The notes under the pieces: generated by a model
What the model saw: the letters and a program-made list of their open reading frames with translations, nothing else
The model's database searches: none
What the model was told of the DNA's origin: nothing
Shown here: positions 12,487-61,683 of the stretch, in pieces
Layout of the letters: each line of letters opens with the position of its first letter
Position numbering within the stretch: the stretch's first letter is position 1
Position numbers and translations under genes: made by a program
Source of the DNA: Candidatus Omnitrophota bacterium
Lineage (GTDB): Bacteria; Omnitrophota; Gorgyraeia; Gorgyraeales; Gorgyraeaceae
Direction of reading: 5' to 3'
Length of the DNA: 64,000 nucleotides
Assembly: GCA_030649895.1 (NCBI GenBank)
Contig: JAUSEX010000026.1
Coordinates: 16,823 to 80,822 of the forward strand

Positions 12487-13723
12487 CTGTTTTTCTTTCT
12501 ACAGTTGTAGAAATTTTTCTTGTCTCTACTTTATCGTGCGAAGTTGCGGTAAAAGGCAATGGGATTTTCGCGTCCGGAAGCGCAAACCTCATGCTGAAAG
12601 TCCCGTCCGGTTTAAGGTCTATTTTTTTATCTCCCAGTTTTACCTCCGCGTCAGGCTCTGTGCGGCCATACACTATAAGCTCTGCGCCTATCTCAAAAAA
12701 GAATTTGCGTTTCTTATCCGGCTGGACAAATTCACTCGCGCCTCCCTGCAAGTTCTCGCTCCCCCCAAGATATGCAAATTCAGATGCCCCGATCATAATC
12801 TTTCTGCCAAATTTCACGTTGTGCAGCCTTTTGAAATAAAGCAGGTCGTGCCATTCTTTTCCTGACATATTGGAATATAAATACCTATATAGCTTCTTTC
12901 TTGAAATCCTGGAAAACATCGCATCTCTTAATAAAGGAGAAAGCCTTGAATAATAAGCCCTCAGGTCCGCCTCGGTAAGATATATCTTTCTTCGTTTAGA
13001 TACAGCCGAGTAACTGAACCTGCCTGCTGCGTCATATTGAACCCCTCGGCTTCGCTCAAAGCAGGCAGCTCCTTCGGTCTTCATAGGCGTAGCCTGTTCG
13101 CTACCTGCCTCCTGAGTCAGGTCCATCCATATCTCTTCAAATCTGCTAGATGTGCCAGATCTAGGGGTATGTACGAAATTAGACCTGGCCATAGGAAAAA
13201 ATCTTCCGGAGTGATGAACTATACCTATCTCTCCCAGATACGAGGCATTATCATTCCACAGACTTATATACCAGTTATTAGAATAGCGGCCCACCTCTAT
13301 GTCAAACCAATGGTTAGCGTTAAACCCGTTAAAATCTTTATATGTGACGTCATACATGCGGACAACAAACCTTGCGCCGTCCAGATTCCCGCCTAATTTG
13401 CGTTTAACGTCCTCTATCGAACTCTCCGCTATTTCCCAGTAAGCGTATATCCAGAAAGGGTCTTTTGCTATTAAAGTAATTCTTGTTGTAGTGTTATACG
13501 AAGGAAGTTCATATTCATTTATTGCCGCAGGCCTAAACGCGCCTTTACGTTCTTGTATTACGCAGGAAGGTTCCTGAACAGTAGCTGCTGGCCTTAAAAC
13601 AACCGGTTGCTTATATTTTATCCTTCTCTTAACAGTCCTGACAGTAGCCTCTCTGCCGTCTCTGTAAACACGCTCTATGGGTTTTCTTTTCTTAAGTTTT
13701 ATTTTTTTACCTGGCATATACAT
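12482..13723 (-). CDS. DUF4912 domain protein with a Lys/Arg-rich N-terminal tail and an uncharacterised C-terminal domain
   Basis: DPFWIYAYWEI and the downstream block match the DUF4912 signature. Its 5' end overlaps the GT4 gene by 17 nt. Confidence 0.65.
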   Translation of the reverse strand: MYMPGKKIKLKKRKPIERVYRDGREATVRTVKRRIKYKQPVVLRPAATVQEPSCVIQERKGAFRPAAINEYELPSYNTTTRITLIAKDPFWIYAYWEIAESSIEDVKRKLGGNLDGARFVVRMYDVTYKDFNGFNANHWFDIEVGRYSNNWYISLWNDNASYLGEIGIVHHSGRFFPMARSNFVHTPRSGTSSRFEEIWMDLTQEAGSEQATPMKTEGAACFERSRGVQYDAAGRFSYSAVSKRRKIYLTEADLRAYYSRLSPLLRDAMFSRISRKKLYRYLYSNMSGKEWHDLLYFKRLHNVKFGRKIMIGASEFAYLGGSENLQGGASEFVQPDKKRKFFFEIGAELIVYGRTEPDAEVKLGDKKIDLKPDGTFSMRFALPDAKIPLPFTATSHDKVETRKISTTVERKTE

Positions 13724-14867
13724 CCATAACCTGGTCAGCTACAATATCCCAGGAAAAAGCGGTCTCAACTGCAATTCTTCCGTTAGCCCCCATCCATCTT
13801 GCGTGGTCAAAATCTGAAAATACCGTGCCTATGCCCCATGCTATTGACTCGGGATTTGCGTATACCTTTAGACCTGTGATATCATGCCATATTATTTCCC
13901 CTGGCCCGCCGTTTGAGGTGGCGACTACAGGTTTTCCTGCGCTCCACGCCTCCAGCAAAACTATGCCGAACGGCTCGTTTCTTGAAGGCATGCACACAAC
14001 ATCCGCAGCTTTATAAATATCAGAGAGCTTCCAGCCATTGCTAAAGCCTATAAACCTTGTAGCGTGATGAACGCCTATCTCTTTTGCCCTGTCTTCCACG
14101 CACCAGCGCATTTCTCCGTCGCCTACAAAAACAAATTTTGCATTATTGTGGTATCTAAGTATGTGAGGCATGGCTTCTATCAAAAGATCCGGGCCTTTTT
14201 GATAAACCATCCTGCCGACAAAAAGCACCATCGGATCTAACGGCCCAATACCATAATAATTCCTGACAGCCGCAGAGTCTATCCACCCGTCAAAATTCTT
14301 GCAATTGACGCCATTATACACTACGTCCACTTTCCAATCAGAGGTATTATACATCCATTGTATTTCTCCCTTGAGAGCCCTAGACACAGCTATCACATGA
14401 TCAGCGCAGTATGTGCCATGCCTTTCATGATCGCGAATCCTAGCAGAATTTCCGTCATTAAAATTATTACCGCACCTGCCGTATTCAGTCGAATGGATTG
14501 TCAGTACAGCTTTGGAGGGACGCACATGCTTTATCCAGACCATTGCGTTTGACGTAAGCCAATCGTGGCTGTGTATCACGTCAAACGGACCCGTAACGCC
14601 CTCTGTACGAAAAAACGTATCCACAAAAGAGCGGCACATGTTATTTATCTCTTCTACGAAATCAGGATTCTTATCAAAGGGGCATCTGTGGTAATGCACT
14701 CCTTGAATGCACTCATACCATGGCTGGTTAGCGCTTCCCATCCGCGTAAAAACATGGACTTCATTACCTTTGCGCTCAAGGGCTGCTGCGAGCTCTGTAA
14801 CGTGCACGCCCACCCCGCCCACGCAAATAGAATGCATAGATTCCCAGGAAAATATCGCTATTCTCAT
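13707..14867 (-). CDS. Glycosyltransferase family 4 (archaeal glycogen-synthase-like or GlgM-like retaining GT)
   Basis: N-terminal GT4 Rossmann domain (RIAIFSWESMHSICVGGVGVHV) and a C-terminal GT1-type domain with the E..G-P motifs. Confidence 0.75.
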   Translation of the reverse strand: MRIAIFSWESMHSICVGGVGVHVTELAAALERKGNEVHVFTRMGSANQPWYECIQGVHYHRCPFDKNPDFVEEINNMCRSFVDTFFRTEGVTGPFDVIHSHDWLTSNAMVWIKHVRPSKAVLTIHSTEYGRCGNNFNDGNSARIRDHERHGTYCADHVIAVSRALKGEIQWMYNTSDWKVDVVYNGVNCKNFDGWIDSAAVRNYYGIGPLDPMVLFVGRMVYQKGPDLLIEAMPHILRYHNNAKFVFVGDGEMRWCVEDRAKEIGVHHATRFIGFSNGWKLSDIYKAADVVCMPSRNEPFGIVLLEAWSAGKPVVATSNGGPGEIIWHDITGLKVYANPESIAWGIGTVFSDFDHARWMGANGRIAVETAFSWDIVADQVMDVYAR

Positions 14868-14880
14868 AAATTATTTCCGC

Positions 14881-15000
14881 GTCAGTTTCGCAATTGCTCC
14901 TCGACTCGCTTCGCTCATTGCCTCCTCCTGTCGCTCACTCGAAGAATACTGTTCGAGCGAAACCACGAAATGGCTGAATCGAGAATTTTCGCGTTATTCC
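14881..15000. repeat. Degenerate tandem or inverted copies of the GTTCGAGCG family-3 repeat, filling the CBM48–GT4 intergenic spacer
   Basis: TGTTCGAGCGAAACCACGAAATGGCTGAATCGAGAATTTT aligns with the copies at 18957 and 35817. The upstream half is an inverted relative. Confidence 0.5.
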
Positions 15001-15005
15001 GCGAT

Positions 15006-15320
15006 TTAAAGTTCTATCACTGAGTTTTCCGAGCCGAAAGTATTTACCACGAAAAGATTGTTTAAGGGGTCTCTCTGCCACTGGCCATCAACTAAATATT
15101 TATACTCGTAACGGCCGGATTTTAGGGTTAAGTCTCTTTTCCAGACTCCATCTTTAGACTTTTTGAGGCTGGCGTTTGATGCGTCCCATGAATTAAAATC
15201 GCCCGCAAGGCGAACATCCTTTGCGTTTGGAGCGCTTATCTTAAAAGCCACCTTTTTTGTTAAATTTTTCTTAACAGCCATTTCCCCCTCCTTTTTTTGG
15301 CACCACGCACCATTCTGCAT
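15006..15320 (-). CDS. Stand-alone CBM48 / AMPK-β-like glycogen-binding domain protein (about 100 aa)
   Basis: VRLAGDFNSWD...W...L.L..G.YEYKYLVDGQWQRDP is the CBM48 signature. The start could instead be the internal Met (MAVKKN). Confidence 0.7.
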   Translation of the reverse strand: MQNGAWCQKKEGEMAVKKNLTKKVAFKISAPNAKDVRLAGDFNSWDASNASLKKSKDGVWKRDLTLKSGRYEYKYLVDGQWQRDPLNNLFVVNTFGSENSVIEL

Positions 15321-17931: not shown

Positions 17932-18936
17932 TTACTTTGCCGTGCAAGCTTCTCTCAAGCATTTAGCGGTCAGTTCAGGCGAGGTAGGGTTTATATAAAG
18001 GCCTGAACCCCATTCAAAACCAGCCACATTTGTCAATTTCGGCATTATCTCCAAGTGCCAGTGGAATTCTTCATAAATACCGTCTCTTATGGGCGCTGTG
18101 TGAATTATAAAATTATACGCAGGATCATTGAGCCTCAGCTTAAGCCTCAAAAGAATTTCTCTTAATATGCCCGCCATATCATAAATCGTAGAATCGTCTA
18201 TAAGCTTAAATTCTGGGCTATGCGCCTTAGGCAATATCCATGTCTCAAAAGGAAAGCGGGACACAAAAGGACAAAATGCGATAAAATGTTTATTTTCTAA
18301 AATTATTCTTTCTTTTTCCTGCTGTTCCTGGGATATCATATCGCAAAAAACACATCTCTCCTTGTACTTAAAATAATTCTGAGCGCCCTTAAGTTCTTCC
18401 TTGACCCTTTTCGGGACAATAGGCAGCGCAACAAGCTGGGTATGGGAATGCTCCAGAGACGCGCCCGCAGCTTCTCCGTGATTTTTAAAAAGCAGGATAT
18501 ACCTGAATCTCGTATCGTTTTCCAGGTCCACGCTCCTTGATTTATACTTAGATATCACATTGACTATCTCGTCCTGCGTCAGATCAGCAAGATCCTTATT
18601 GTGGTCTGTGTTTTCAACTATAACTTCATGAGCGCCAATGCCGTTTGACATATCAAACATACCGATAGCGCGATTATCCAGATCTCCCTCTATTTTCAAG
18701 GCGGGAAATTTATTCGATACCACTCTGACTGTCCAGCCAGGCGTGTCAGGCCTTGTTTTAATGTCCCTTACAGCCTCTATTTCCGGCGGAGTCATCTTTT
18801 CGTTCCCCTGGCAAAACGGGCAAGTCCCGCCTTTTTTAGTCTGCGGCTTAATATCAAACTCATCGCATCTCTTTGGATTAGAGACAGCTATCTCTACCCA
18901 TCTTCCCGTTATCGGATCGCGCCTTAATTGAGACAT
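17932..18936 (-). CDS. galT: Galactose-1-phosphate uridylyltransferase-like HIT-family nucleotidyltransferase (intact HxHxQ)
   Basis: CPFCQGNE zinc motif and an intact EHSHTQ active site. The track start at 18948 is a TTG. The ATG at 18936 gives MSQLRRDPITGRW, which parallels the paralog. Confidence 0.85.
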   Translation of the reverse strand: MSQLRRDPITGRWVEIAVSNPKRCDEFDIKPQTKKGGTCPFCQGNEKMTPPEIEAVRDIKTRPDTPGWTVRVVSNKFPALKIEGDLDNRAIGMFDMSNGIGAHEVIVENTDHNKDLADLTQDEIVNVISKYKSRSVDLENDTRFRYILLFKNHGEAAGASLEHSHTQLVALPIVPKRVKEELKGAQNYFKYKERCVFCDMISQEQQEKERIILENKHFIAFCPFVSRFPFETWILPKAHSPEFKLIDDSTIYDMAGILREILLRLKLRLNDPAYNFIIHTAPIRDGIYEEFHWHLEIMPKLTNVAGFEWGSGLYINPTSPELTAKCLREACTAK

Positions 18937-18956
18937 GTGTCCCTTCAATACTAGTT

Positions 18957-18999
18957 AATATTATTCGAGCGAGGCACCAAAAGTGCCGAGTCGAGAACT
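18957..18999. repeat. Family-3 repeat copy A (AATATTATTCGAGCGAGGCACCAAAAGTGCCGAGTCGAGAACT), abutting the galT paralog stop
   Basis: About 90% identical to the copy at 35817-35859. As RNA it contains a GGCAC/GUGCC hairpin. Confidence 0.65.
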
Positions 19000-20028
19000 T
19001 TATAGCACAACTTCCCGTAAATATTTCGCTGCTTCTTCCGGCGGAGTAGGATTTATATAAAAACCTGAACCCCATTCAAAACCAGCCACCTGAGTAATCC
19101 TGGGCATAACTTCTATATGCCAGTGATAATCTTCCTCGATAGTATGCCAATACCCAAGCCTCTTTGACCGCCTAAAGGGGGCCGTGTGCAGCATATAATT
19201 GTACGGCGGATCATTCAATGCCTTTGAAAGCTTTGCAAATACTGTCTTCAAAACACTTGCCAGGTCTTTTATCTCGTCGCCTTGTATGTTCATAAAATCC
19301 GCCCTGTGGACTTTTGGCATTATCCATATTTCAAAAGGGAATCTTGAGGCAAAAGGCGCTATCGCCACCACTGTTTTTGTATCCATGACAACCCTGGAGC
19401 CTGTATCTATTTCCTGGCTTATGATATCGCAGAAAATACATCTTTCTTTGTATTCAAAATAAAAGCGCGAACCCCTAAGCTCTTCCTTCACCCTGGTAGG
19501 GGTAACAGGTGTTGCGATAAGCTGAGACCTTAAATGTTTTGTCCTGCTGCTCCCGCCCGCTTTTAATCCATGATTCTTAAACAAAAGGCAGTATTTAAAC
19601 CGAATATCTTTCTCAAGCTCGCTAATACGATAAATAGAAGTATTAATGACATCCTGTATCTCAGGTTCTGATAACTGATATACATCCGTAAGATGTTTTG
19701 GAGATTCTATTATGATCTCATGCGCGCCTATAGGGTTCATAACATCGTACATCCCGACCCCGCGCCTGTTCAGGTCCCCTTCTATTATAAATTTAGGGGC
19801 TATGCTAGGGACAACCCTGACATTCCAGCCGGGCGTATCTTTCTTTGTGTCCGGCTTTCTGATCGCAAATATCTCCGCAGGGGTTTTATTTTCACGCCCC
19901 TCGCAAAAAGGGCATTCCATTTCAGGCTCATCCGCATGTTTTATATTAAAATCGCTCGGCCTTTTAGCCCTTTCAGTGGATATTATAACCCATCTTCCTA
20001 TTACCGGATCTCTTCTTAGTTCTGGCAT
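19000..20028 (-). CDS. GalT-like HIT-family paralog with the nucleophilic His replaced (HLRSQ instead of HxHxQ)
   Basis: Collinear with the adjacent galT and keeps CPFCEGRE. The active-site segment reads KHLRSQ, so the second His is Arg. Confidence 0.8.
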   Translation of the reverse strand: MPELRRDPVIGRWVIISTERAKRPSDFNIKHADEPEMECPFCEGRENKTPAEIFAIRKPDTKKDTPGWNVRVVPSIAPKFIIEGDLNRRGVGMYDVMNPIGAHEIIIESPKHLTDVYQLSEPEIQDVINTSIYRISELEKDIRFKYCLLFKNHGLKAGGSSRTKHLRSQLIATPVTPTRVKEELRGSRFYFEYKERCIFCDIISQEIDTGSRVVMDTKTVVAIAPFASRFPFEIWIMPKVHRADFMNIQGDEIKDLASVLKTVFAKLSKALNDPPYNYMLHTAPFRRSKRLGYWHTIEEDYHWHIEVMPRITQVAGFEWGSGFYINPTPPEEAAKYLREVVL

Positions 20029-33139: not shown

Positions 33140-33772
33140 TTACTGCATGTATCCGTATTCCCTCAGGATATCTTTAAAATCGCTGGCCTTTGCCTTATCC
33201 TTTGCTACGTATTTTCCTATTATATCCGTTTCCACGTTGATAAAATCGCCTTTTTTCTTTGCGGAAAATGTAGTGCTTTTAAGCGTCTGCGGTATAAGAT
33301 ATACCGTAAAATCCTCTTTTGTTACGCTTGCCACTGTAAGGCTTACGCCGTCCAGCCCCACAGAGCCTTTTTCAACCAGAAAGGCGGCGTATTCTTTCGG
33401 AAGATAGATCTTGAAACCTGTCCCGCCTGATCTTTCAGACACATCCGTAATGGTTCCTTTATAGTCCACATGGCCCGTCAGAAAATGCCCGCCCATCCTG
33501 GCGTCAGCCTTCACGCTTCTTTCCAAGTTTACCGCATCGTTGATCTTTAAACCAGCCAATGTAGTCCTTTTAAGCGTTTCAGGAATTACGTCAAAACTTA
33601 AAATATTCCCGCTGATTTCCGTAACGCTCAGGCACGACCCGTTCACGCAAATACTATGCCCTATCATAGCGTCGAGACGCACCTTATCAGCCTTTATCTT
33701 CAATAAAGCGCCTGTCCCTGTCCGGCTAATTCCCTTTACAACGCCTATCTCTTCAACAATTCCAGTAAACAT
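33140..33772 (-). CDS. ribE: Riboflavin synthase α subunit
   Basis: MFTGIVEEIG N-terminus and the duplicated lumazine-binding domains. The 12-codon upstream extension in the track is encoded by a family-3 repeat. Confidence 0.9.
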   Translation of the reverse strand: MFTGIVEEIGVVKGISRTGTGALLKIKADKVRLDAMIGHSICVNGSCLSVTEISGNILSFDVIPETLKRTTLAGLKINDAVNLERSVKADARMGGHFLTGHVDYKGTITDVSERSGGTGFKIYLPKEYAAFLVEKGSVGLDGVSLTVASVTKEDFTVYLIPQTLKSTTFSAKKKGDFINVETDIIGKYVAKDKAKASDFKDILREYGYMQ

Positions 33773-33787
33773 TTTCAGGCTTTCTAA

Positions 33788-33863
33788 ATACTGTTCGGGC
33801 AAGGCCATTAAGCAGCCGGTCGAAAGCTTCTCGGCTTCGTTCGCTCCGCTCGAAAAATATTTA
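33788..33863. repeat. Family-3 repeat, long inverted-repeat form (ATACTGTTCGGGCAAGG...GCTTCTCGGCTTCGTTCG...GCTCGAAAAATATTTA), between ribD and ribE
   Basis: Same architecture and internal GCTTCTCGGCTTCG(C/T)TCG block as the copy at 54813-54886. Confidence 0.55.
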
Positions 33864-34964: not shown

Positions 34965-35811
34965 ATTGTTTTAATCGTGACGCGTCTCTTAATTTTTCCA
35001 CAAGCTCATAAGAGACTTTCACTTTGCCCAGCAGTACTTCTTTTTTCCCAAGCCCGTGACAATCGGATCCGCCTGTCACAAGCAAGCCGTATTCTTTAGC
35101 TAATGCCTTAAACTCATTTGACTCTCTGGCATTATGATCGGAATGATAAGCCTCTATGCCCTGTACACCCTCGCCTACAAGCATCCCGACCGTATCCCTC
35201 AAAGGTCTATTTTCCGTATTAATAGTCTTAGGATGAGCGAGGACGCTAACGCCGCCTACAGACTTTATCATATCGCTAGCTTCTCTGGGGGATAGTTTGA
35301 ATTTTTTTACATAAGCGGGCGAGTTATTGCCTATATATTTAGTAAAAGCATCCCTTACGCAGGATATCTTTCCTTTTGCATACAAAAGATTCGCTATATG
35401 CAGCCTGCCTACGGAATTCATGCCTGGGCCCGCAAGCTTCAGCAGATCTTCATACTGTAAATCAATTCCCTGTTCACTCAGCCTTCTCAAGATCTCTTTC
35501 GCCCTTTCTTCCCTGACCCTGCATAGCTCTTCCAGTTTTTTTGTAAATTCCTTATTTTGCCAGTCAATAAAATATCCCAGCATATGAACTTCGTCGTCTT
35601 CGAGTTCCGTGGTTAATTCCACGCCAGGGATAATCTCGATATCCATGTCTTTTGCAAACATGATCGCAGGCGCAATTCCTGCGCAAGTATCGTGATCTGT
35701 TATTGCAATAGCGTCCAGTCCAGCCAGTCCGGCCAAACTCACAACCTTTTCAGGAGAAAATGTGCTGTCGGAAATATTCGTGTGAACATGAAGATCAGCT
35801 ACTTTTCCCAT
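34957..35811 (-). CDS. PHP-domain metal-dependent phosphoesterase (TrpH/YciV-like)
   Basis: DLHVHTNISD, HD, HP and DCH metal-binding motifs. It overlaps the ribD start by 8 nt. Confidence 0.75.
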   Translation of the reverse strand: MGKVADLHVHTNISDSTFSPEKVVSLAGLAGLDAIAITDHDTCAGIAPAIMFAKDMDIEIIPGVELTTELEDDEVHMLGYFIDWQNKEFTKKLEELCRVREERAKEILRRLSEQGIDLQYEDLLKLAGPGMNSVGRLHIANLLYAKGKISCVRDAFTKYIGNNSPAYVKKFKLSPREASDMIKSVGGVSVLAHPKTINTENRPLRDTVGMLVGEGVQGIEAYHSDHNARESNEFKALAKEYGLLVTGGSDCHGLGKKEVLLGKVKVSYELVEKLRDASRLKQYE

Positions 35812-35816
35812 TTAGC

Positions 35817-35859
35817 AATATTGTTCGAGCAAGGCACCGAAGATGCCGAGTCGAGAACT
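35817..35859. repeat. Family-3 repeat copy B (AATATTGTTCGAGCAAGGCACCGAAGATGCCGAGTCGAGAACT), overlapping the nusB stop
   Basis: About 90% identical to copy A at 18957-18999. Confidence 0.65.
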
Positions 35860-36274
35860 ACTGTTTACATTCAGTTTTCTTAATTTTATCGAGTATCCCG
35901 TTGACAAACTTCCCGGAATCAACATCACCGTATTTTTTAGCAAGCTCGATGGCTTCATTAATAGAGACATTAAGCGGGATATCATCCTTGTAGAGCATCT
36001 CATACACGCACAGGCGCATTACATTCTTGTCTATGACAGCCATCCTGGATATATTCCAGTTATTCGTATATTTTGAAATAAGATCGTCTATGGCTTTTAA
36101 ATTTTCGCATGTGCCTCTTACCAGAGTTTCGGTGAAGTTATGCGCCTCTTCATCCGCTGAATCCGCTGATTTCGACCAGAAATCCTTAAAACTATCCTCA
36201 ATCGACTCCCTGGAGATCTCTATCCTGTAAAGAATCTTTAAGGCGCATTCCCTCGCAAAAGTGCGTTTACGCAT
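35858..36274 (-). CDS. nusB: Transcription antitermination factor NusB
   Basis: NusB fold motifs, in the conserved position after ribH. Confidence 0.85.
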   Translation of the reverse strand: MRKRTFARECALKILYRIEISRESIEDSFKDFWSKSADSADEEAHNFTETLVRGTCENLKAIDDLISKYTNNWNISRMAVIDKNVMRLCVYEMLYKDDIPLNVSINEAIELAKKYGDVDSGKFVNGILDKIKKTECKQ

Positions 36275-38104: not shown

Positions 38105-38240
38105 AAAATACAACGCGCTTACCTCTTCTCTCATCTAGCCTTTCACAATCGGTTCCGGAATCACGCCGGATCTGCCCTCTTTTACGAGAGCTCGCGGACT
38201 TTACCGCCGGTGGGGAATTTCACCCTCTCCCGAAGATACT
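38105..38240 (-). promoter_or_regulatory. FMN riboswitch (RFN element) aptamer in the ribBA leader
   Basis: The minus-strand RNA reads ...CUUCGGGAGAGGGUGAAAUUCCCCACCGGCGGUAAAGUCCGCGAGC...GAUUCCGGAACCGAUUGUGAAAGGCUAGAUGAGAGAAGAGG, matching the conserved RFN core (GGGUGAAAUUCCC, ACCGGCGGUA, CAGUGAAAG, GAUGGGAGAAG). Confidence 0.85.
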
Positions 38241-38244
38241 GTGT

Positions 38245-42460: not shown

Positions 42461-42543
42461 ACCATAGACACTTCGTAAGCGGGTCAACTAGTTGACCCAC
42501 TTACGAAATATAATAATTAAAAAACAGGCCGTAAACCGTGGCG
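42461..42543. repeat. Family-4 conserved intergenic element (CCATAGACACTTCGTAAGCG ... TAATAATTAAAAAACAGGCCGTAAACCGTGGCGG). It carries a 29-nt palindromic insertion relative to the copy at 61630-61683
   Basis: The two loci align over about 55 nt at roughly 90% identity by manual alignment. Confidence 0.6.
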
Positions 42544-42630
42544 GACAAACGTCTTTTCGTAGGCCAGCTATGGCTGGCAAACACCTGCTAGCGCTATTTG
42601 ACATTGAAAGTATTGCATGGCTCCATAAGA

Positions 42631-54796: not shown

Positions 54797-54812
54797 TTTA
54801 AACTCCTTGTCG

Positions 54813-54886
54813 TATTGTTCGAGCGGCCCACCATTGTTTCTGCGGCGGGAAGACGAGAGCTTCTCGGCTTCGCTCGAAACATATTA
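54813..54886. repeat. Family-3 repeat, long inverted-repeat form (TATTGTTCGAGCG...GAGCTTCTCGGCTTCGCTCGAAACATATTA), between yceD and rpmF
   Basis: The terminal arms are the reverse complement of each other. It shares the 5' block with copies A and B and the internal block with 33788-33863. Confidence 0.55.
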
Positions 54887-57432: not shown

Positions 57433-57912
57433 CTACTTTAATTTTGATTTAATTGCTTTCTCGATAAATAAAGGCACAAAACCCTTCAAATTCGCCCCAA
57501 GGCTGGCAGCCTCTTTAATCAACTTCGACGAAAGGTAAGAATACGCCTCCGAAGGCATCATAAAAATCGTCTCAACGTCTTTGGAAAGCTTTCTGTTCGT
57601 AAGCGCCATCTGAAACTCATATTCAAAATCTGAAATCATCCTGAGGCCCCTGATAACAACTCTTAATTTTTTCCTTTTTACGTAATCCACCACAAGGCCC
57701 TGAAAATCATCCACTTCCACTCCTTTAATGCCTTTTGTGGCTTTTTTTAATAATTCCACCCTTTCAGCTACGCTAAAAAGAGGGTCTTTTTCGCTATTAT
57801 GGGCAACGGCCACAATAACCTTATCAAACACCTTAAGCGCCCTCTTTATTATATCAAGATGGCCGTATGTAACAGGGTCAAAGCTGCCGGGATATATAGC
57901 TGTATTTTTCAT
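57433..57912 (-). CDS. coaD: Phosphopantetheine adenylyltransferase
   Basis: YPGSFDP.T.GH.DII motif, about 159 aa. Confidence 0.9.
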   Translation of the reverse strand: MKNTAIYPGSFDPVTYGHLDIIKRALKVFDKVIVAVAHNSEKDPLFSVAERVELLKKATKGIKGVEVDDFQGLVVDYVKRKKLRVVIRGLRMISDFEYEFQMALTNRKLSKDVETIFMMPSEAYSYLSSKLIKEAASLGANLKGFVPLFIEKAIKSKLK

Positions 57913-57982
57913 CCTTCGATTCCTTTCAGTCGCTCAGAATAACCCTGAACAAGTAAAGTCAAACTACTACAAGCCAAATGGG

Positions 57983-61629: not shown

Positions 61630-61683
61630 CCATAGACGCTTCGTAAGCGTAATAATTAAAAAACAGGCTGTAAACCGTAGCGG
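61630..61683. repeat. Family-4 conserved intergenic element, short form, abutting the radical-SAM start codon
   Basis: Aligns to 42461-42543 (minus the 29-nt insertion) at about 90% identity. Confidence 0.6.

Follow-up and report, generated by a model that had tools for sequence, protein, structure and literature searches.

Our analysis of 64,000 nucleotides of Candidatus Omnitrophota DNA (this whole stretch is called the window below) identifies a family of short palindromic units at gene boundaries which, to our minds, are probably small non-autonomous mobile DNA repeats of the REP/BIME/REPIN kind. While that kind is already known, the family itself is new, and a literature search found no match for its literal core strings. 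The traits we observe are units that occur singly or as inverted dimers, lie between genes and often on a stop codon, and are present in one genome and absent from close relatives. An earlier note, made from the letters of this DNA alone, had wavered between a small mobile repeat and a conserved 3'-UTR or terminator module. Presence and absence among close relatives supports the former, and the latter fits poorly with units that are missing at the relatives' orthologous junctions, lack a T/U run and are randomly oriented. The host lineage, Omnitrophota, is an uncultured phylum of ultra-small cells.

In the 64-kb window, the family comprises five intergenic loci with about eight units and one possible relic (Table 1). 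The unit has the consensus (A)ATATT-S-TTCGAGCGA-[variable hairpin]-GAGTCGAGAA-S'-TA and a length of ~45 nt, and it stands alone at two loci while inverted dimers occupy those at 14.9, 33.8 and 54.8 kb. All five loci that the earlier note had placed at gene 3' ends are indeed there, and far beyond chance: the degenerate core TTCGAGCRA-N15-GARTCGAGAA is matched exactly at 14952-14985, 18964-18997 and 35824-35857, three hits against none in 100 dinucleotide-preserving shuffles, a test that is independent of our covariance model. A repeat finder likewise groups the copies at 14945, 18957, 35817 and 54811 into one family, the first of them a full copy that reaches to 14987 and the 54811..54853 unit showing 60% identity to the reference copy. 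The two single 43-mers, next to the stops of a galT paralog and nusB, were rightly described as near-identical (88% identity, 5 differing positions), and the 35824 copy has the same sequence in an independent public assembly and thus is not an assembly artefact. The covariance model, trained on class-B copies (the kind found in the window, see below) with three strong window copies among them, reports five window units at E ≤ 0.005, a sixth at E 0.54 and the possible relic at E 0.18, and does not reach the 33787..33829 copy.

Table 1. Units of the repeat family in the window. Model E values at 35816-35865, 18956-19005 and 14944-14993 are partly circular, because these copies helped to train the model.
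Position	Strand	Unit	Setting	Support
14890..14951	-	divergent partner unit with long central insert	left half of head-to-head dimer	model E 4e-4
14944..14993	+	full unit	right half of head-to-head inverted dimer	model E 2.5e-10, exact core
18957..18999	+	single unit AATATT-A-TTCGAGCGA-GGCACCAAAAGTGCC-GAGTCGAGAA-CT	between two galT paralogs	model E 7e-13 (18956-19005), exact core
33787..33829	+	diverged full unit TTCGGGCAA-GGCCATTAAGCAGCC-GGTCGAAAG	half of tail-to-tail dimer, ribD/ribE spacer	by eye and fuzzy head match
33820..33862	-	short partner unit AATATTT-TTCGAGCGG..GCCGAGAAG	AATATT head includes ribD stop	model E 5e-3
35817..35859	+	single unit, G...C closing pair	between nusB and PHP-domain gene	model E 2e-13 (35816-35865), exact core
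54811..54853	+	diverged full unit TATTG-TTCGAGCGG-CCCACC..GGCGGG-AAGACGAGAG	spacer between DUF177/yceD-like gene and rpmF	repeat finder
54853..54886	-	minimal partner unit AATATGT-TTCGAGCGAAGCCGAGAAG, without central hairpin		model E 0.54
57907..57944	-	possible decayed sixth locus TTATTC-TGAGCGA-CTGAAAG-GAATCGAAG, low confidence	rsmD-coaD spacer	model E 0.18

All genes around the repeats lie on the minus strand and every locus is downstream of a stop codon, which four of the five loci touch or overlap and from which the 14.9-kb locus is 18 nt away. The single unit ending at 18999 directly adjoins the galT-paralog TAA (19000-19002), with its purine-rich (GA) strand being the plus strand of the window and hence antisense to the genes; the one ending at 35859 overlaps the nusB TAG by 2 nt, its CTA tail forming part of this stop codon; and AATATT heads hold the TAA codons of ribD (33861-33863) and the DUF177/yceD-like gene (54884-54886). 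At 14.9 kb, in the spacer between a CBM48 gene (15006-15320) and a glycosyltransferase gene (13707-14867), the earlier note had seen a degenerate tandem pair (14881-15000). A pair it is, albeit not a tandem one: on the minus-strand reading the units are inverted head-to-head (..CGCTCGAA-CAGTATTC-TTCGAG..), and the whole dimer folds at -41.6 kcal/mol. Similarly, the supposed longer relatives at 33.8 and 54.8 kb do belong to the family yet turn out to be tail-to-tail dimers, each joining one diverged full unit to one short unit of the form TTCGAGCG(A)-AGCCGAGAAG that lacks the central hairpin.

Evidence for mobility comes from close relatives, about 15 loci of which (RibD 76-89% identical) were recovered in a metagenome search with RibD and keep the gene order nusB-PHP-ribD-ribE. 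The nusB-PHP junction is empty in all 13 relatives that cover it, with genes overlapping or 5-17 nt apart, and the 43-nt unit is found there only in the window. Likewise, the galT-galT junction is empty in four of five relatives (L150, L152, L153 and ERZ1426815), whose stop and start codons overlap or abut (TAATG or TAGATG), and in the fifth (88% identity) this very position is taken by a palindromic insert of 130 nt that is unrelated; in the window, 62 additional bases lie here, namely the unit and 19 nt ahead of the downstream ATG. Because the genes overlap or abut at both of these junctions in the relatives, we regard both single window copies as recent insertions. Moreover, 181 kb of the relatives' orthologous DNA hold no family unit better than E 0.34 which, together with the empty junctions, rules the unit out as a conserved module for the regulation of these genes. 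In other genomes, groups of copies share identical stems, some of them longer identical flanks too, and this indicates recent bursts. The galT-like paralogs themselves (GalP_UDP_transf/DUF4931, in tandem at 17932-20028) have a 131-nt stretch in common (72% identity), and the tandem pair is kept in relatives with overlapping stop and start codons. Homologues of galT bear the label Candidatus Omnitrophota, by which the window is assigned to this phylum.

The flanks of the nusB-PHP insert are two diverged copies of the old ~15-nt overlap segment (gaATGtAAAcAGTAG and aaATGggAAAAGTAG), the first of which keeps the nusB stop while the second supplies the PHP start codon. This points to a possible 9-15-nt duplication at nusB-PHP; none is visible at galT-galT, the other of our two empty-site comparisons. 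Four relatives (L124, L127, L132, L142) have the second segment copy plus GCTAAA, and no repeat unit, at the site corresponding to window positions 35811-35875 (minus strand), a state that could be either the one before insertion or the footprint of an excision. As for the ribD-ribE and CBM48-glycosyltransferase spacers, they are empty in the relatives or filled by other palindromic families (e.g. AAGTTGACA...TGTCAACTT and CACCGCGTAGGTGG...CCACCTACGCGGTG). Unrelated palindromic families were seen at junctions orthologous to the 33.8-, 18.96- and 14.9-kb loci in eleven of the relatives' loci (L124, L127, L142 and L152 again among them), and examples from sister lineages are AAGTTGACACT..AGTGTCAACTT, CACCGCGTAGGTGGGGTTTAAACCCCACCTACGCGGTG and the 130-nt GGTTTAAGG/CCTTTAACC element. 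These gene spacers look like hot spots at which several small palindromic elements settle.

The insertions have left their mark on gene models. The open reading frame at 33140-33808 starts MALPEQYLESLK-MFTGIVEE, and the earlier note had suspected that a repeat copy lends ribE its apparent 12 extra codons. This proves right: in about 20 related loci the ribE alignment begins at MFTGI with unrelated DNA, or none, upstream, so that the extra codons - contributed by the 33787..33829 unit - are translated repeat. The N-terminal extension is therefore an annotation artefact due to the repeat, and the false 222-amino-acid product is already present in a public gene call. Open reading frames at other loci also run into units at their ends. 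More generally, units lying over stop and start codons produce wrong gene models.

What is conserved in the unit is its core and, outside it, pairing. Across 392 kb (47 class-B loci plus the window) the covariance model finds 111 units at E ≤ 0.01, and next to nearly every strong class-B unit, at a distance of a few bases, lies a weaker one that is inverted. Compensatory changes, which the earlier note had proposed to look for, are abundant: in the model alignment 90.7% of cells are paired versus 72.4% after shuffling, double-change cells number 193 versus 76 and the covariation score is 0.248 versus 0.069. The observed pairing values were not attained in any of 500 shuffles, and the structure breaks down once it is shifted by 1-3 columns. 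The GGCAC/GTGCC-type hairpin, which had been ascribed to each copy, is confined to two of them and the rest have other, compensated stems; the AACCAC/ATGGCT hairpin of 14944..14993, for instance, differs from the 18957 copy by three double compensatory changes. As to the pair that flanks TTC...GAA on the outside, 56 units have C-G and 46 have G-C, and class A has T-A. Dimers combine one C...G-type with one G...C-type unit, are joined head-to-head through AATATT or tail-to-tail through a short loop and, when full, give four-way-junction folds in either circular permutation. Pairing across units would generate C.C and G.G oppositions while pairing within a unit is Watson-Crick, which favours each unit folding on its own.

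From this modelling we infer that the purine-rich strand of the unit forms a rod-like hairpin with two tandem G.A motifs. At its base, a stem P1 would pair S-TTC with GAA-S', followed by a tandem sheared G.A/A.G step in a 5'-CGAG-3'/5'-CGAG-3' context, then by a G-C and a C-G pair with a bulged T between them, and by a second tandem G.A step; the outer end would be a variable stem P2 that mostly closes in a triloop (GAA, AAA or GCA). In DNA, the Y-GA-R context makes for stable sheared tandem G.A pairs. Loops of P2 are mainly GAA (16), AAA (8) and GCA (7), and its mismatches on the purine-rich strand are strongly skewed, with G.A (43) exceeding C.T/T.C (7) and G.T (21) exceeding A.C (9). By nearest-neighbour folding, the purine-rich strand is the better folder in 96 of the 111 units. 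In short units, GC-GAA-GC takes the place of the second G.A step and P2, and the bulged T becomes C. For the register of the basal stem, where covariation cannot discriminate, energy models and RNAalifold prefer the invariant TCGA/TCGA pairing. Run on a MAFFT alignment, RNAalifold returns only this TCGA/TCGA stem and outer P2 pairs, because MAFFT misaligns stems of unequal length.

Our findings that units sit at stop codons and fold into covarying hairpins could be read in favour of a functional cis-acting RNA, for example a 3'-UTR stabiliser, a processing site or a factor-dependent terminator, which would punctuate operons and owe its spread to a benefit for the host. Four of the five window loci, and 17 of 64 clusters at a distance of ≤10 nt, are at or near the stop of an upstream gene (a long ORF in the latter count), and tandem G.A motifs are common protein-binding features of RNA. 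Moreover, according to background cited in PMC12306157, E. coli REPs are reported to stabilise upstream mRNA and, when close to stop codons, to affect translation. Complementarity, however, is equally expected of a DNA hairpin element and is therefore not by itself proof of a functional RNA. Against such a role also speak the lack of conservation at orthologous sites, the absence of a U-tract and of an Rfam family (Rfam 15: no gathering-score match for the units in the window or at 18 loci, and nothing relevant at E ≤ 10 on 18900-19060) and, importantly, orientation, which is random with respect to transcription. Thus, 66 canonical units divide 34:32 relative to the coding strand, a cruder test against neighbouring genes gave 18:12 and no bias, and in the mRNA the three single or canonical window units are represented by their pyrimidine strand, which folds poorly. 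Taken as a whole, we consider a cis-acting RNA unlikely.

Improbable, too, is that the unit serves as a duplex-DNA or cruciform site for a conserved host protein - in nucleoid organisation, or gyrase/IHF-like as for BIMEs - with its core kept by selection. Support for this would come from the 9+10-nt core, which stays the same from phylum to phylum and contrasts with a freely varying stem, from the missing orientation bias and from BIMEs, which PMC2817692 presents as binding sites for several proteins. Yet close relatives with the same housekeeping genes do without the family, its taxonomic range is patchy and the strong strand asymmetry of the mismatches is unexpected for a duplex site. Still, it is uncommon for REP families to share a 19-nt core among phyla, and a host function could lie behind this.

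An intrinsic (Rho-independent) terminator, suggested by a GC-rich hairpin right after stop codons, is highly improbable: no T-run follows the hairpin in either orientation, a terminator scan made no calls at these sites and the insertions separate formerly overlapping, co-transcribed genes. A sigma-54 promoter, for which the GGCAC(N5)(G/A)TGC read on the gene strand at the 18957 and 35817 copies would fit GG-N10-GC spacing (GGCAC-N5-GTGC), is next to inconceivable, as the other window copies and about 100 elsewhere are unrelated at these positions where only pairing is constrained; variability of the central stem refutes it, and the spacing is an accident of the stem in two copies. An integron attC site was rejected as well, there being no GTTRRRY box and the neighbours being housekeeping genes rather than cassettes.

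Copies are by no means restricted to the window, a point on which the earlier note had asked for a check, and occur in many phyla. Scanning one genome per species with the core pattern returned at least 118 stretches; among the matches listed, 115 are distinct and 87 have family flanks and/or a stem in the N region, the remainder being chance, and at least four consecutive pairs from the N-region ends are found in 47% as opposed to 2.2% after shuffling. The core is present in Omnitrophota, Patescibacteria, Planctomycetota, Acidobacteriota, Coriobacteriia, Bacteroidota and others, in all more than ten higher-level lineages, with a patchy distribution. Mis-binning cannot explain this breadth, since the matches are on long contigs of very different G+C. 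Class B, (A)ATATT-S-core-S'-TA, accounts for at least 20 distinct units in Omnitrophota, at least 13 in Patescibacteria and at least 8 in uncultured gammaproteobacterial MAGs, and is also found in Auribacterota. Class A, (T/C)GTC-AT-core-AT-CTC, accounts for at least 10 in Planctomycetota, 7 in Acidobacteriota, 5 in Coriobacteriia and 4 in Bacteroidota (each figure again a lower bound), with single cases among the matches listed in Verrucomicrobia, Chloroflexota, Desulfobacteraceae and Lachnospiraceae. Among the matches listed, its tag is TGTC in 26 of 34 and CGTC in 6 of 34 (TGTCAT 24, CGTCAT 6, TGTCGT 2).

Several observations concern individual groups of matches. In an Acidobacteriota MAG (MFD05377), a class-A unit lies inside a ~200-300-nt element with terminal inverted repeats of its own (CTAGAGCGGTTCC..), at least eight near-identical copies of which exist, some with an internal 50-nt indel. 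Several Coriobacteriia MAGs from human gut show, at six loci, a recurrent and unusual class-A stem GCGAAC-GAA-GTGAGC with an internal tandem G.A. Nine matches are conserved sphingomonad/alphaproteobacterial coding sequence (..GC TTCGAGCGATTCTTCCTTGGCCGA(A/G)TCGAGAA AGCCGCAGGTGTTGAC..) which fits the core by chance and comes without hairpin or family flanks. Five matches in IMG/VR viral contigs were discarded as chance, none of them having the hairpin or family flanks. We also considered ATGAC after class-A units as a gene start and dropped the idea; the open reading frames there are short or unrelated, so that ATGAC is part of the repeat.

Among known systems, REP/BIME/REPIN elements of E. coli and Pseudomonas, which RAYT (TnpA-REP) Y1-HUH enzymes mobilise, come closest in showing short imperfect palindromes that are intergenic and often past stop codons, head-to-head and tail-to-tail dimers of two unit types in alternating orientation, within-genome subfamilies whose presence varies between relatives, and stems with mismatches and bulges. 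In contrast to these, our units lack the GT[AG]G foot tag: the head is TATT-S, the tail of the G-type CTA(T/C/A), and in no more than 5 of 47 G-type units does the other strand show GTAG. Also, we found no RAYT gene beside the units, and the 19-nt core spans more than ten higher-level lineages whereas REP families are normally lineage-specific.

With the CGTC-tagged REP superfamily (Di Nocera et al. 2013, PMC3733652), which takes in Neisseria dRS3 and Rickettsia RPE-4/6, class A shares the tag (often as TGTC), the first stem pairs A-T/T-A and a 3-nt tail, and both are multi-phylum and have no dedicated transposase known. The stem in that superfamily, however, is a simple one of 8-9 bp with a 4-5-nt loop, while here a 4-5-bp basal stem is broken by a conserved asymmetric, GA-rich internal loop (GAGCGA/GAGTCGA) and followed by a variable 5-7-bp stem with mostly 3-nt loops. 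Nor do the class-B copies of the window have the CGTC tag, in place of which they carry the AATATT head; the tag is seen only in class-A relatives from other phyla. MITEs with REP-like hairpins (Coxiella QMITE2, PMC5896051; Neisseria Correia elements) resemble our family in being small, lying in gene 3' regions, overlapping ORF ends, having inverted termini (as in our dimer form) and unique flanks per insertion. Unlike them, our units are unrelated in sequence, have no parent IS that we could find, occur also as ~45-nt monomers and show no consistent direct repeats comparable to the 7-11-nt ones of QMITE2.

How might mobile palindromic repeats of this kind move? A DNA-processing enzyme that acts in trans, its gene lying elsewhere in the genome, would recognise the asymmetric hairpin in single-stranded DNA or an extruded cruciform, and would copy or move units into AT-rich gene boundaries. 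Our best guess for this mobiliser would be a RAYT/IS200-like Y1-HUH enzyme, although none such was found here. No protein family recurs beside units at about 100 loci, a sample by which one RAYT per genome may easily be missed; 351 ORFs lying ≤400 nt from a unit, compared all-against-all by BLAST, yielded nothing beyond the sphingomonad (chance) cluster and scattered housekeeping genes (GspE/PilB-type ATPases, kinases, DnaK, ABC-F); by eye, ORFs between closely spaced units resemble GatB, Lgt, IlvC, LeuA, EF-G and similar; and inspection of the window ORF list revealed housekeeping genes and no transposase-like ORF. A lagging-strand bias has been reported for IS200/IS605 elements, and none is seen among our 66 canonical units (32:34 against GC skew). 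Nonetheless, a Y1-HUH mobiliser remains plausible, given that atypical structures, different from the GTAG type, flank some TnpA-Y1 subclasses (Quentin et al., PMC6006769). Once inserted, the unit is a passive passenger in operon mRNA that parts formerly overlapping genes and donates or displaces stop and start codons. Should units also alter mRNA stability or decouple their flanking genes, this would be a secondary matter.

A bolder proposal, which we put forward as doubtful, goes beyond the family in the window and sees the TTCGAGCGA/GAGTCGAGAA 'GA-rod' hairpin as the hallmark of one superfamily of palindromic repeats that is pan-bacterial in range. The orphan CGTC-type REPs would overlap with its tagged form, it would have spread horizontally over more than ten higher-level lineages, and its mobiliser, an enzyme of wide distribution or an ssDNA-processing activity of the host, would read the CGAG/CGAG tandem-G.A core. 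If this were true, lineage-specific recent insertions would make the enzyme identifiable by phylogenetic profiling.

Some features of the window are of interest in their own right. An FMN riboswitch (98.9 bits; 38119-38241, minus strand) lies upstream of the ribBA-ribH-nusB-PHP-ribD-ribE string, and this places two of the repeat loci inside a riboswitch-controlled operon. Another repeat of 34 nt, TAATAATTAAAAAACAGGC(C/T)GTAAACCGT(G/A)GCGG, occurs at 42511-42544 and 61650-61683 (94% identity) downstream of two unrelated genes; with a hairpin and then TTTTTT on the minus strand, it has the look of a terminator-type repeat shared by both. Over window positions 1-64000, a crude ORF picker places about 64 of 68 ORFs on the minus strand and a few short ones on the plus strand, whose GC skew stays between -0.14 and -0.24 throughout; for 64 kb, such a strand bias is unusually strong.

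Returning to the small mobile palindromic repeats that we favour, their units mark very recent genome change, in that two formerly overlapping gene pairs have been split and the downstream gene now starts past the insert. Their invariant 19-nt core, covarying stem, recent insertions and patchy range offer a handle on the mobiliser of such repeats, and the family helps to ask whether a tandem-G.A hairpin is the structure that is recognised. Most worth following up is the invariance of the core across phyla combined with a stem that is free to vary as long as it pairs.
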